Numbered from the stretch's first letter, positions 53,203 to 62,947 are shown. The stretch is DNA of 64,000 nucleotides from Bacteroidales bacterium (GCA_029007825.1 JAQXIO010000029.1:144481-208480); one strand, 5' to 3'. The notes: generated by a model from the sequence alone, not told the origin. Translations and numbers: made by a program.

Positions 53203-54078
53203 ATGAAAAAATCTCTACTTATGGCAATTGTCTTGATTGCCTCATTTGACTTGTCTGCCCAGATACACCAAAGCAGCACGGGGCAGGTTGTTATCGGCCC
53301 GACTTACGCAAACGGTGCATATCTGGATACAACGGGGCTCGTTCCTTTACAGATTCTGGGACGATATACCGGTGTAAGAACAGGACGGGATATGCCGTCG
53401 ATTGCTTTCGGCCAGCAATCGGGAGGTAAACTGACTAATTATATCGGAGGGGAGAGTACTATGCAAATGTACGGATATAGTTCCATTACCCTGGGAGCCG
53501 GTACGGGAAGCGGTAAAGTAAGTTTGTTGACGTATAGTACGCAAAATCCTTATAAGACTATGTATATCGGCGCTCCTATAACGTGGATACCTGTAATTCA
53601 GTGCCAGAAGATTACCCAGCAGTCGGCACCTAATACCACGATGCCGGCACAGGCCAGGGTAAACGGCGTTCAGCCGGCAGTATCGGCTCTTACCGGCGCT
53701 CTTACCGGTTTGTGTTCGTTGCAGGCTGTAACATACAACACTTCTACCCTGCCTCAGAATGCGTCATTTGAGGAAGCGTCGGATGAGACTTCGGAAGAAC
53801 CCGGAACTTTCAGTGCCGAAATGCAGGATAATGCTGTTCAGGCATCTCTGTCCGAACCTGAAAATACGGGCCGGCAAATCGGTTTCGTAGGGGAAGAGTT
53901 CAGGCAAATATTTCCGGATTTGGTTTCGTCCGATCGGGATGGTAATTTGTATATCGACTATATGAGCCTGATCCCTATTATGGTGGAAAGCCTGAAGGAG
54001 CAACAGAATACGATTGCCGGCCTTAGGGCGGAAATCGAGCAGATTAAGAAAGAATTAACCAACGCAACATCGAAATAA
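53203..54078 (+). CDS. Secreted tail-fibre-domain protein with Peptidase S74/ICA chaperone-like C-terminus
   Basis: Signal peptide; 'L.SLQAVTY...IGFVGEEFRQIFPDLV......LYIDYMSLIPIMVESLKEQQNTI' resembles the intramolecular chaperone domain, ending in a coiled coil. Confidence 0.75.
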   Translation: MKKSLLMAIVLIASFDLSAQIHQSSTGQVVIGPTYANGAYLDTTGLVPLQILGRYTGVRTGRDMPSIAFGQQSGGKLTNYIGGESTMQMYGYSSITLGAGTGSGKVSLLTYSTQNPYKTMYIGAPITWIPVIQCQKITQQSAPNTTMPAQARVNGVQPAVSALTGALTGLCSLQAVTYNTSTLPQNASFEEASDETSEEPGTFSAEMQDNAVQASLSEPENTGRQIGFVGEEFRQIFPDLVSSDRDGNLYIDYMSLIPIMVESLKEQQNTIAGLRAEIEQIKKELTNATSK

Positions 54079-54086
54079 TCCAGGTT

Positions 54087-55100
54087 ATGAAAAAGATATT
54101 ATTACTGACAGCCAGCCTATTCTTCGCATCGAATATTTTTTCACAGATAAACTATTCCGGTTCTTTTACGGGGATCGATATTCCGGTTCCGCAAACATTG
54201 GCTCATCCGGAATCTGCATTCAAAGTATTCCAGCCCAAAAGGCTTCCGGCACAGCTGGATAGCTGTACGGCGATCGCTACCTTTTCGGGAGAGGCAAATA
54301 CGCAGTCCACACAGTATAACCGGGTAAAAAATACCCTTTGGCTGAGACGCGCCAAGGCCGGTAACGACTGGCAAACGGCAACCCTGCATGACGGGGTATC
54401 GGTAGACAACAGCTTTCTGATTCCGGGAAAGGAGACAAAAACCTGGTGGGAACGCGACCCGAAGAACGATGTCCAGTCGTGGGGAACGGCGGCAAATACT
54501 TATATGACGATTAAAGGCGGAAATGTGGGAATAGGAACGGCAGCCCCCGGCGAGAAGCTGGTATTATATAACGGCACCGCTCTTCAGACCGCTACCCAGT
54601 ATGCCAATGCAAGTACGGCTATCGGCACCGATAAAGGTTTTATGGTGGGTATAGAATCTGCCGGTAACGGCCTTATCTGGCACAGGAACAACAGTTTTAT
54701 CCGTTTCGGTACCAACGCAACCGAACATATGCGTATTCTCGGTAATGGAAATATCGGTATCGGGAAATTAACACCTCAATATAAATTAGATGTGAACGGG
54801 GTTATTCATGCTAAGGAGGTTGTGTTGACAGAGACCAACGGCGCGGATTTTGTATTCGATAAAGATTACTGTCTGCCAGATTTGCAAAGCGTGGAAGAGC
54901 ATATTAAGGAGCATCGGCATCTTCCTGAGATACCGTCGGCCGATGATATGAAAAAGAACGGGGTGGGTATCGTGGAGCTGAATATAAAACTGTTGCAGAA
55001 AATAGAAGAGCTGACTCTTTATATCATCGACCAGGAGAAAAAACTGTCTTCGCAAAACGAACGTATTTTAACTCTCGAACAGGCGCTCGGGAAAGAATAA
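54087..55100 (+). CDS. Secreted phage-tail-fibre-like protein (GNVGIGT repeats, chaperone-like C-terminus)
   Basis: Signal peptide; 'GNVGIGT..P', 'GNIGIG...PQYKLDVNG.I.AKEV', 'ADFVFDKDY.L..L..VE..IKE..HLPEIPSA......G....LNIKLLQKIEELTLY'. Confidence 0.75.
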   Translation: MKKILLLTASLFFASNIFSQINYSGSFTGIDIPVPQTLAHPESAFKVFQPKRLPAQLDSCTAIATFSGEANTQSTQYNRVKNTLWLRRAKAGNDWQTATLHDGVSVDNSFLIPGKETKTWWERDPKNDVQSWGTAANTYMTIKGGNVGIGTAAPGEKLVLYNGTALQTATQYANASTAIGTDKGFMVGIESAGNGLIWHRNNSFIRFGTNATEHMRILGNGNIGIGKLTPQYKLDVNGVIHAKEVVLTETNGADFVFDKDYCLPDLQSVEEHIKEHRHLPEIPSADDMKKNGVGIVELNIKLLQKIEELTLYIIDQEKKLSSQNERILTLEQALGKE

Positions 55101-55119
55101 CCTTTGAAAAACCGATATT

Positions 55120-55545
55120 ATGTACCGCATTATTTTTTTATGCTTATATGTCCTTTGCGTAGGATTAGCCATGGCACAAGGTTCAAAGATTGCTTTTACG
55201 TATGACGCAGACGGAAATATGGAGTCGCGTAAAGTAGTACCTCTTACAAATGCCCGATCTGCCGCGCCTGAGGAAGAGCTTCAAAGCGAAAGTTCCCAAT
55301 TGGGAGAACAGACGATCACCATCTATCCGAACCCGACCAAAGGACGTATCGCACTCGAGGTATATCCATTGGATACGGAGGTAAAGAATAGTTACAGTCT
55401 TATGGACTTGTCCGGTAAATTATTAGAGCAAGGGAATATAGAGAACCAGATAACCGATATCCATATCGAAGGCGGCACGGGTATATACCTGCTGGATGTC
55501 CACTTGGGTAAAGAGGTTTCGAGATGGAAGATCATTAAGCAATAG
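55120..55545 (+). CDS. Small T9SS type A sorting-domain protein with a single YD-like motif
   Basis: Signal peptide, 'FTYDADGNMESR', then only the CTD 'IYPNPTKG...GIYLL...RWKIIKQ'; 141 aa. Confidence 0.85.
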   Translation: MYRIIFLCLYVLCVGLAMAQGSKIAFTYDADGNMESRKVVPLTNARSAAPEEELQSESSQLGEQTITIYPNPTKGRIALEVYPLDTEVKNSYSLMDLSGKLLEQGNIENQITDIHIEGGTGIYLLDVHLGKEVSRWKIIKQ

Positions 55546-55559
55546 CCAAAACGAATCTT

Positions 55560-61762: not shown

Positions 61763-61771
61763 TCAAGTAAG

Positions 61772-62017
61772 ATGGAAGAAAAATATATAAAGAAATATTG
61801 GGAGGAAGAGGATATCCTGTTCTATTTACATTTTCGGGATGACTTTGCCGTAAGGCAGATAGAAGAGTCGTCAAAGGGGAGAATCTATTTATCGGAAGAA
61901 AGACCGGTTATAGGAGAGTATATGCTCTATGACCAACGGTTGAGCGATCTGGATTTAACGGAAACAGATTTTATAACGGAACAGGAATTTGAAAAGGAAT
62001 GGAAAAAAGAAAAATAA
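61772..62017 (+). CDS. Putative cognate immunity protein (small, acidic)
   Basis: 81 aa, very Glu/Asp-rich, starts 9 nt after the toxin stop, same AT-rich composition as the toxin tip. Confidence 0.7.
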   Translation: MEEKYIKKYWEEEDILFYLHFRDDFAVRQIEESSKGRIYLSEERPVIGEYMLYDQRLSDLDLTETDFITEQEFEKEWKKEK

Positions 62018-62021
62018 GGTT

Positions 62022-62480
62022 ATGATTCAATATATAGAGTATGGCGATATTTTTAATTTAGAGTCGGTTAACAGTTATGCACATGGTTGTAATTGCGCCG
62101 GGGCGATGGGAAAAGGAATCGCATTACAGTTCAGAAACAGGTTTCCAAAGATGTATTGTGAATATAAGGAGTTGTGTAAAAATGGAGATTTTAATTTAGG
62201 GGATATCTTTGTTTATAATTATGGAAACGGTTATGTTTTTAACCTCGGAACACAAAAATCGTGGAAAAGTAAAGCAGAAATTAGCGCTATAGAGCAATCA
62301 TTAAAGAAAATGCTTTTATATGCACAGGGAAAAAGTATAAAACAAATAGCCTTACCTAAAATAGGCGCGGGATTAGGGGGATTGGAATGGGATGAAGTGA
62401 AAGAAGTTATGGAAGAAGTTTCGTCTGAATATCCCGGCGTTCGGCTTGTGATTGTGATGAATTATAAAAAAGAGATATGA
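62022..62480 (+). CDS. Macrodomain protein (DarG/TARG1-like ADP-ribose-processing fold)
   Basis: ATG 62022; 'GDIF', 'HGCNCAGAMGKGIALQFRNRFP', 'FNLGTQ', 'IALPKIGAGLGGLEW'. Confidence 0.9.
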   Translation: MIQYIEYGDIFNLESVNSYAHGCNCAGAMGKGIALQFRNRFPKMYCEYKELCKNGDFNLGDIFVYNYGNGYVFNLGTQKSWKSKAEISAIEQSLKKMLLYAQGKSIKQIALPKIGAGLGGLEWDEVKEVMEEVSSEYPGVRLVIVMNYKKEI

Positions 62481-62569
62481 GTTTTTCGGCAAAGAGAAAT
62501 TTGAAGAAAATGTAATACAAAATTTTTACGGGATGAATCGGGGTGATACCTGTATCTGAAATGTGATGT

Positions 62570-62947
62570 ATGTCAGAAAAGTTTTATAATACACTTGTCC
62601 AGAGTCTCCGGCTCGTAGCTTCGCCGGCAGATATACAGATAAAGTCTTTGCCTGATTTTGTCTGTATTGCTGATGAAATAGCTTTGACTTATGACGAGAC
62701 TTATGTCCTTCTTCCGCAAATAGCGGAAGAAGATAAACGCTTTACCCCTCAGGTTATGGAGACATTGAAAGAACTCGATCGTCTGTTCGGAGAAATGTCG
62801 GAAGATAAAACGTTATGGGACATCGATCAATTAAAGGAAAATCTTAAGTGGGAGAAAAGCCGTCTGCTGGCTTACGAAGCATTGCAATTATTAGGGGAGC
62901 CATATGAGTTTCCCGATTTGGGCTATATAAGTTATGTGCGAGGGTAA
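62570..62947 (+). CDS. Hypothetical acidic protein, candidate orphan immunity protein
   Basis: 125 aa, cytoplasmic, acidic, in the post-toxin array. Confidence 0.55.
   Translation: MSEKFYNTLVQSLRLVASPADIQIKSLPDFVCIADEIALTYDETYVLLPQIAEEDKRFTPQVMETLKELDRLFGEMSEDKTLWDIDQLKENLKWEKSRLLAYEALQLLGEPYEFPDLGYISYVRG

Follow-up and report, generated by a model that had tools for sequence, protein, structure and literature searches.

A YD-hairpin microprotein with a type IX sorting domain as the conserved neighbour of SpvB/FG-GAP/Rhs toxin genes in Bacteroidota

A 64,000-nt stretch of DNA from a Bacteroidales bacterium of the pig gut (the window; positions are counted from its first letter) carries at 53203-62947 a row of genes built around a toxin gene of the SpvB/FG-GAP/Rhs type. 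The gene directly upstream of the toxin encodes a microprotein with a signal peptide, a single YD hairpin and a C-terminal type IX secretion system (T9SS) sorting domain (CTD), and surveys of the phylum show that hairpin and Rhs genes are regularly found side by side. As far as comparative genomics can tell, a link between this SpvB-Rhs type and the T9SS is well supported. The evidence is evenly balanced on the further proposal that the genes form a Bacteroidota polymorphic-toxin cassette, in which a Sec-exported SpvB/FG-GAP/Rhs cocoon would be towed out of the cell, or mounted on its surface, by way of the hairpin-CTD partner and the T9SS. How Sec-exported Rhs cocoons leave Bacteroidota cells is a gap to which this pairing suggests an answer.

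Synteny of the hairpin and Rhs genes

The pairing was surveyed from both sides. Eighty named loci were collected on the hairpin side from contigs representing one genome per species. On the Rhs side, an N-terminal piece of the Rhs protein was used as the query against an evenly drawn sample of 401 genomes of the phylum, and the loci recovered were checked for a hairpin gene by hidden Markov model and by motif, with the tally made by hand. In five of five independent contexts (a metagenome-assembled genome (MAG) of Dysgonamonadaceae, Draconibacterium sediminis, a Bacteroidaceae MAG and two metagenome contigs) the hairpin gene lay 5-30 nt upstream of an SpvB/FG-GAP/RHS gene of 2024-2192 codons. 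At the named loci, 58 of 72 hairpin genes adjoined an Rhs gene, 43 of them directly upstream; eight of the 14 hairpin genes with no adjoining Rhs gene were too near a contig end to tell. The taxa represented include Paludibacter, Dysgonomonas, Symbiothrix, Draconibacterium, Labilibaculum and Muribaculaceae, together with Rikenellaceae, Prevotella/Hoylesella, Azobacteroides, Aquimarina, Moheibacter and a Kapaibacterium.

The Rhs query returned 45 matches in 28 of the 401 genomes. Three matches at contig ends and one that was left unexamined were set aside, and 37 of the 41 assessable loci had an adjacent gene encoding a signal peptide and a YD hairpin, upstream of Rhs in about two thirds of cases and downstream, past the immunity gene, in one third. 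The other assessable matches comprised three members of a distinct class of about 3300 residues, two of them with larger CTD proteins upstream, and one true Tc locus. All 14 genomes with full-length hairpin-CTD matches, among the matches listed, were among the 28 Rhs-positive genomes (Fisher 1.6e-18).

The first-pass annotation of the window had proposed a T9SS-linked Rhs system with fibres as a co-conserved part. The link to a small CTD protein is upheld by the adjacency at 37 of 41 loci and for 58 of 72 hairpin genes, with the amendment that the partner is defined by its N-terminal YD hairpin; it may stand on either side of the Rhs gene, and behind the hairpin it usually, though not always, has a CTD. 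The fibres proved facultative and variable in order. Because they occur at about a third to 40% of loci, against the adjacency figures above, the conserved core is the hairpin-Rhs pair and not the fibres.

The genome from which the window derives (3.18 Mb, 74 contigs, 97% complete) holds a second cassette, this one intact, on contig C30, identified by tblastn. It consists of a 594-residue protein gene resembling the second fibre-like gene of the window (fib2), a gene for a 144-residue hairpin-CTD protein and a gene for a 2094-residue Rhs protein, followed by two small genes and an orphan Rhs tip. Genome G107 contains at least five cassettes (L012, L013, L018, L046 and L047). In four of them a fibre gene comes first, then Rhs, immunity and hairpin-CTD genes; the L018 sequence stops short of whatever gene precedes Rhs, and shows two tandem hairpin-CTD genes.

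Organisation of the cassette

Region 53203-62947 is a single compact row of genes on the plus strand, forming one operon. The features, with the frameshift zone and the first gene beyond the operon, are as follows.

53203-54078, plus strand: fib1, 291 residues; signal peptide, S74-like C-terminal part, terminal coiled coil, no CTD
54087-55100, plus strand: fib2, 337 residues; signal peptide, GN(V/I)GIGT...KL.V repeats, C-terminal helical coiled coil
55120-55545, plus strand: hairpin-CTD microprotein, 141 residues; signal peptide, YD hairpin, acidic linker, type A T9SS sorting domain
55560-57542, plus strand: first Rhs open reading frame (ORF), 660 residues; signal peptide, SpvB-like domain (residues 102-290), FG-GAP beta-propeller repeats, premature stop
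57479-57542, no strand assigned: frameshift zone in which both Rhs frames are open, from three-frame translation against the intact C30 paralogue
57539-61762, plus strand: second Rhs ORF, 1407 residues; remaining FG-GAP repeats, YD/RHS shell, Rhs core, hydrophobic stretch, toxin
61772-62017, plus strand: acidic protein of 81 residues; weak Myosin-VI_CBD match (E 0.014)
62022-62480, plus strand: DarG-like macrodomain protein, 152 residues from ATG; Macro 1.9e-17
62570-62947, plus strand: protein of 125 residues; no Pfam or NCBIfam match
63469-64000, plus strand: start of a signal-peptide protein of 241 residues; no family match

The gaps between successive genes are 8, 19, 14, -4 (between the two Rhs ORFs), 9, 4 and 89 nt, and the order, strand and spacing first described for a compact operon of fibre genes, mini-CTD gene, Rhs and immunity genes are borne out. 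Sec signal peptides had likewise been assigned to the first four products. Read by eye, each of these begins with M-K/Y followed by a hydrophobic run and A/S/G-Q, which is read as the usual Bacteroidota signal for signal peptidase I, and the AlphaFold2 (AF2) models of fib2 and the hairpin-CTD protein have N-terminal helices at residues 2-15 and 2-17, in agreement with the assignment. A promoter and terminator scan of the operon, made with a consensus unsuited to Bacteroidota, found sites no commoner than in shuffled sequence.

The hairpin-CTD microprotein

The microprotein comprises a signal peptide (residues 1-20), a YD beta-hairpin (residues 23-40, nt 55186-55239), an acidic linker (residues 41-67) and a sorting domain (residues 68-141, nt 55321-55542). 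The sorting domain matches Por_Secre_tail (PF18962) at 4.5e-7 with 30.5 bits (cut-off 27) and TIGR04183 at 2e-10 with 40.4 bits (cut-off 23). A homologue search with the 141-residue protein gave 371 matches. The relatives are about 140 residues long, some of them named 'YD repeat-containing protein' or 'T9SS type A sorting domain-containing protein', and across the family the C-terminal part is mostly a sorting domain, with some longer proteins of 276-659 residues. In an alignment of 40 relatives, Y28, D29, G32 and N33 were invariant or nearly so outside the sorting domain; together they make up one YD repeat right behind the signal peptide, and the linker that comes next is variable.

An AF2 model of the protein (predicted local distance difference test (pLDDT) 78) has the hairpin at residues 23-40, disorder at 41-55 and a confident beta-sandwich at 57-140. 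The modelled sandwich superposes on the CTD of NucA bound in the T9SS translocon (8GLK_D) with a template modelling (TM) score of 0.81 and a root-mean-square deviation of 2.2 A, and also on the sorting domains of mirolase and RgpB. In sequence family and fold the sorting domain is thus like that of the type A cargo proteins NucA, RgpB and mirolase. It differs from them in its passenger, a hairpin and tether of only about 45 residues, so that by itself the protein has no obvious function. The top Foldseek match of the hairpin-CTD model was the DUF3244 structure BT_1867 (4G5A), and at locus L007 the position upstream of the hairpin gene is taken by a DUF3244 gene (9603-9980) instead of a fibre gene.

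The Rhs protein and its comparison with Tc toxins

The first Rhs ORF matches SpvB at 5.6e-17 (profile positions 3-197 of 287) and FG-GAP_3 at 1.7e-12. The second matches RHS_repeat (PF05593) at 1e-32 in six stretches, TIGR01643 at 2e-18 and, at residues 1033-1112 (nt 60635-60874), Rhs_assc_core (TIGR03696) at 5e-16. One DPxG motif only, DPEG, marks the end of the Rhs core (residue 1109 of the second ORF, nt 60863-60874); it is the motif at which self-cleavage of the core is predicted. The SpvB/FG-GAP/Rhs assignment with DPxG made in the first pass is confirmed by these matches. Behind DPEG lies a hydrophobic stretch rich in Gly and Ala (nt 60875-61273, about 130 residues, 30% Gly, 17% Ala, positive hydropathy), and most SpvB-Rhs relatives have such a segment directly behind DPxG, ahead of unrelated toxin domains. 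It may be a conserved membrane-entry module, carrying the toxin across the target membrane.

A frameshift splits the Rhs gene of the window into pieces of 660 and 1407 residues. The two ORFs overlap by 4 nt, and alignment to the C30 paralogue showed that the protein passes smoothly from the first frame to the second within the frameshift zone; the paralogue runs in a single frame throughout the equivalent position, with no break. The break sits within the FG-GAP beta-propeller and not at a domain boundary. The pieces were analysed separately and the reading frame was left unmended. As a check on an assembly error, which is a possible cause of the frameshift, metagenome runs were compared: a Logan contig from pig-gut run X1, which is possibly the source sample of the genome, was identical across the frameshift at a depth of about 7; runs X2-X4 gave no coverage of the site. 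Since the propeller is interrupted, the window copy of Rhs is probably inactive.

The signal peptide, SpvB, integrin-like propeller and RHS combination was described by Zhang et al. (2012) as a 'TcdB/TcaC-type' class found in Bacteroidetes (PMC3482391). The window Rhs shares with this class the signal peptide, SpvB, FG-GAP propeller, RHS shell, DPxG core and swappable toxin with its immunity gene. The class was assigned a TcA-like export route, whereas here the constant neighbour is the hairpin-CTD gene and no TcA was found; the window also adds a DarG-like macrodomain as a second immunity gene. Among the marks of Rhs polymorphic toxins, repeats, DPxG core, toxin and immunity are present in the window and an uninterrupted frame is absent.

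Similarity to the BC cocoon of Tc toxins (TcdB2-TccC3, YenB-YenC2) extends to an SpvB-like N-terminus, a beta-propeller and an Rhs shell enclosing the toxin. Unlike the BC cocoon, the window Rhs carries a Sec signal peptide and matches SpvB in part only (5.6e-17, compared with 5e-86 in L045), and neither TcdB_toxin_midN nor TcdB_toxin_midC was matched (Pfam, E <= 0.01). L045 (G035:C1:941777-961776; genes at 3-5780 and 5794-13122) is a canonical Tc locus in a Bacteroidota genome, TcA followed by a TcB-like gene. Its TcA has TcA_TcB_BD (7e-115), ABC_toxin_N and a neuraminidase-like domain, and its TcB-like protein of 2442 residues has SpvB at 5e-86 and TcdB_toxin_midN/midC at 6e-35 and 2e-21, with no signal peptide; the locus has no hairpin gene. 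On the strength of the missing mid domains and the signal peptide, the window Rhs is not filed as a canonical TcB-TcC member, for all its apparent resemblance to the cocoon. The TcB-TcC architecture initially proposed therefore survives in its SpvB and propeller parts, and fails in the mid domains and in the signal peptide, which is unlike true Tc.

Just behind the Rhs signal peptide (window 55650-55760, Rhs residues 35-65) a short motif, ARD.I.L..GF.F.A, was seen by eye. It matched no family and could be a shared docking element. Motifs of this type were also noted at the Rhs N-termini at C29:277358 and C26:58194 of the same genome. A similar one (ILKPGFYAKQGS.F, LLPGFTAEKGSVF) stands ahead of the sorting domain in the CTD proteins C12_485 and C62_311, which follow fib2-like genes, and another ends one hairpin protein (L035 7379-7984).

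Toxin and immunity genes

The C-terminus of the Rhs protein matches the ADP-ribosyltransferase toxin family Tox-ART-HYD1 at 4e-25 (nt 61430-61720). Imm-My6CBD is an immunity family listed for Tox-ART-HYD1 (Zhang et al. 2012, PMC3482391), and the acidic 81-residue protein is a probable immunity protein of the Imm-My6CBD type for the HYD1 toxin. The macrodomain protein probably strips ADP-ribose as a second immunity function; its match to the DarG antitoxin macrodomain of NCBIfam (7.8e-37) falls short of the full-length cut-off. The 125-residue protein is possibly an orphan immunity gene, a reading in keeping with where the gene lies and with the low G+C (0.338) of 62-64 kb. The likely immunity genes point to a bacterial target.

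Distribution of the T9SS and earlier reports

The own genome encodes SprA in an ORF of 2490 residues (SprA_N 6e-204). SprA was found in 312 of the 401 genomes of the phylum sample, among them all 28 Rhs-positive genomes, and Rhs occurred in none of the 89 genomes lacking SprA (Fisher 6.7e-4). In a sample of 201 genomes of the order, all 53 Rhs-positive genomes had SprA and none of the six SprA-less genomes had Rhs (Fisher 0.16). Cassettes common in genomes without T9SS had been named in advance as an observation that would speak against a T9SS link, and they were not seen. Eleven of 12 named carrier genomes contained SprA, including MAGs labelled Bacteroides, Muribaculaceae, Rikenellaceae and Kapaibacterium. 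The exception is L127, an 11-kb contig with a hairpin gene in a 5.2-Mb bin without SprA (a MAG labelled Acetivibrio, G604); the bin bears a Firmicutes name, and the contig was most likely binned wrongly.

Adjacency of a T9SS-tagged gene to an Rhs gene is already known from P. gingivalis and Apibacter. In P. gingivalis 381 the Rhs gene PGN_1818 has PGN_1817, which encodes a T9SS cargo, upstream of it; T9SS genes were co-induced with the Rhs locus, and a mechanistic link was suggested (Moradali et al. 2019, PMC6775972). Most SpvB-type rhs genes of Apibacter adjoin genes with type A sorting domains, and an association with the T9SS was proposed (Steele and Moran 2021, PMC8125069). The adjacency and the suggested T9SS link are the same as those found here. 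In their available parts, these reports concern one species or genus, and contain neither the hairpin family, its invariant residues, phylum-wide synteny, a secretion test nor any mention of fibre genes. New here are the synteny counts in both directions, the definition of the partner by its hairpin and not its position, the contrast with Tc, the fibre counts with their connection to the fibres of Bdellovibrio, and the hydrophobic segment conserved ahead of the toxin.

Proposed export route and alternatives

In the proposed mechanism, the hairpin would add onto a beta-sheet of Rhs in the periplasm by strand addition. The sorting domain would be recognised by PorV at the SprA translocon and exit first; type A cargo is reported to leave the translocon CTD-first on PorV (PMC10994853). 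The tag-less cocoon would thereby be towed out or mounted on the cell surface, where the fibre-like proteins, as optional surface fibres, may help in attachment to target cells. Once contact is made, passage of the cleaved toxin across the target membrane would be aided by the hydrophobic Gly-rich segment. In its most specific form, the proposal is that the T9SS exports or mounts a cocoon of about 230 kDa that lacks a sorting domain by means of a 15-kDa YD-hairpin adaptor acting in trans, with fibres to aim and the Gly-rich segment to deliver, in a contact-dependent system using neither TcA nor a type VI secretion system (T6SS). So detailed a version is tentative, and rather doubtful as a whole.

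Several points weigh against export through the hairpin partner. The main physical objection is one of size: once folded, a TcB-TcC-like cocoon is probably broader than the pore of SprA, and towing it through in that state may be impossible. The Rhs gene of the window is frameshifted, and two further SpvB-Rhs genes of the own genome have no upstream partner; both run off contig ends, and because they are cut off there a downstream partner is possible. Four hairpin proteins (L030, L031, L033 and L035) have no recognisable CTD, which means that the CTD may not be essential. Co-occurrence with the T9SS has low power, as SprA is nearly universal in the order, and the SprA-less genomes of the phylum sample belong mostly to one family, so that the phylum p value is confounded by phylogeny. 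With nearly all relatives carrying a T9SS, the co-occurrence is compatible with the proposal and weak as support, and its use as a decisive test was dropped (p 0.16 for the order; 6.7e-4, confounded, for the phylum). Finally, the literature searched holds no binding, export or killing experiment for Rhs via the T9SS. This agrees with the statement in the first-pass annotation that no experimental description of the route was known, save that a T9SS link had already been suggested from the adjacency in two reports (PMC6775972, PMC8125069).

This size objection keeps alive an alternative in which the hairpin protein serves as an anchor at the cell surface or as a cap. The T9SS would secrete it alone and it would be fixed to the surface, there to capture or hold cocoons that leave by outer-membrane vesicles, lysis or another pore, or else it would shield a beta-edge of the cocoon in the periplasm. 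This is possible, at a probability well short of even. It draws on the same synteny evidence and sidesteps the problem of pore size; attachment to surface lipopolysaccharide is common among type A CTD cargo (PMC10994853), and some hairpin proteins have other C-terminal parts in place of the CTD. It offers, however, no outer-membrane route for a 230-kDa periplasmic protein, and a mature microprotein of about 45 residues after CTD removal has little with which to hold a cocoon.

That the two proteins have no physical link is improbable. The hairpin-CTD protein would then be an independent small T9SS cargo, either a PorA-like regulator or an Rhs fragment joined to a CTD, that has been co-duplicated and co-transferred with the toxin. 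Small, nearly cargo-less regulatory CTD proteins do exist, PorA being an example in the available part of one report (PMC7712824), and the YD hairpin resembles a piece of an Rhs gene. Against this, the hairpin residues are invariant across about 25-50% overall identity, and the adjacency outlasts changes of gene order (upstream, downstream, with a fibre gene between) in several orders and one other class, for which hitch-hiking alone is insufficient.

Delivery by a TcA-like injector or a T6SS with genes at another place in the genome, which the TcB-typical SpvB and FG-GAP N-terminus might suggest, is very improbable and was rejected as largely refuted for the own genome: a genome-wide search found no VipB/TssC and no PAAR, with positive controls; no TcA gene lies within the window, and a genome search for TcA_TcB_BD (PF18276) had no match, with no control genome matching either; and the Rhs protein has a Sec signal peptide and no mid-domain match, whereas L045 has the mid domains and a TcA and no signal peptide. 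The PF18276 model does recognise the TcA of L045 by hmmscan. The absence of T6SS genes noted in the first pass was thus confirmed, and that of TcA stands at a search with no working control.

Were the Rhs cocoon indeed exported through its hairpin-CTD partner, a sorting domain acting in trans would be a new use of the T9SS and would add a major class of interbacterial weapon to its cargo. Bacteroidota are dominant in the gut, in the mouth and in many environmental communities, and this Rhs type occurs in about a quarter of the Bacteroidales families sampled. The hairpin microprotein provides a small and precise handle on the system, being one gene with four invariant residues, and the optional fibre genes, related to Bdellovibrio prey-recognition fibres, suggest a targeting layer.

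Fibre-like proteins

The first two genes had been annotated as fibre- or S74-like. The fibre likeness was substantiated for fib2, and the S74 likeness of fib1 stays below threshold in this copy (Peptidase_S74, PF13884, E 0.26). Two paralogues of fib1 on contigs C7 (389 residues) and C14 (365 residues) match Peptidase_S74 at 2e-13 and 3e-15 and are fused to Por_Secre_tail. S74 fibres are marked by a Ser-Lys self-cleavage site; the SDAK.KK motif of these paralogues reads differently in fib1. Only two close homologues of fib1 were found, one of them with both S74 and a CTD.

No S74 match was found for fib2 in Pfam. Its family is large, with at least 6,669 matches at E <= 1e-5 among 8,000 scored candidates, and some relatives are named tail fibre or chaperone of endosialidase. 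Identification as a fibre rests on a profile match to Bdellovibrio together with Foldseek. A profile of 44 family members matched the Bdellovibrio bacteriovorus fibre Bd2133 (8OND) at 1.4e-15, and also Bd1334, Bd3182 and Bd2439, by way of the repeated GNVGIGT...KL.V motif. The top Foldseek matches of the AF2 model (pLDDT 77) were Bdellovibrio fibres and T4 gp34, at low TM-scores (0.2) for a monomer model. The fib2 family thus has the stalk motif in common with the Bdellovibrio fibres (Bd2133, Bd1334, Bd2439 and Bd3182; 8OND, 8OML, 8OL4 and 8ONC). It differs in its head domains, and members of the Bacteroidota family have a helical coiled coil at their end and are often found in large tandem arrays unrelated to Rhs; fib2 itself is known from its sequence and the monomer model.

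Fibre-like genes accompany 14 of 41 Rhs loci in the phylum sample and 27 of 80 loci in the named set, about 34-39% of loci. They stand before the hairpin gene, between hairpin and Rhs, directly before Rhs, or after a hairpin gene downstream of Rhs. Recurrence in so many arrangements and families suggests that the fibre link to Rhs loci is real but optional. Most members of the fib2 family are located elsewhere, away from Rhs. A role of the fibres as core parts was rejected in view of these counts, the size of the family and its Rhs-free arrays in Pedobacter and Marinifilum. In the own genome, fib2-like genes on C12 and C62 are each followed by a sorting-domain protein (PF18962 5e-13 and 4e-7), and the fibre families of this genome are therefore tied to T9SS-tagged proteins, being fused to them or adjoining them.

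Arrays of the fib2 family were observed in several genomes. Pedobacter heparinus (L048) has about 15 tandem genes for proteins of about 300 residues, and Marinifilum breve (L050) and a Saccharicrinis MAG (L097) have six each; next after the array in Marinifilum come a BACON protein and a DUF6443 protein. In Flavobacterium defluvii (L049, 1739-9104), pilin-like, T2SSE ATPase and secretin genes stand in a row that has a fib2 homologue as its last member and adjoins an RHS-repeat gene on the opposite strand.

Surroundings of the cassette

On one side the operon is flanked by the pentose-phosphate genes gnd, zwf and pgl. On the other, beyond the window, a run of small secreted proteins leads to SecA. 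The 241-residue protein that starts in the window is followed by a tandem paralogue with 61% identity and by two more small secreted proteins, making four signal-peptide proteins ahead of SecA (C29, up to about 210946). G+C falls to 0.338 over 62001-64000, the immunity end of the cassette, and this low-G+C end with its small signal-peptide proteins may be a store of orphan immunity genes.

Elsewhere in the window, three giant proteins with T9SS sorting domains are encoded at 3389-7810, 8600-13909 and 22007-28999 (1473, 1769 and 2330 residues). Two of these have Flg_new_2 repeats and one has DUF4465 and BNR_assoc_N.

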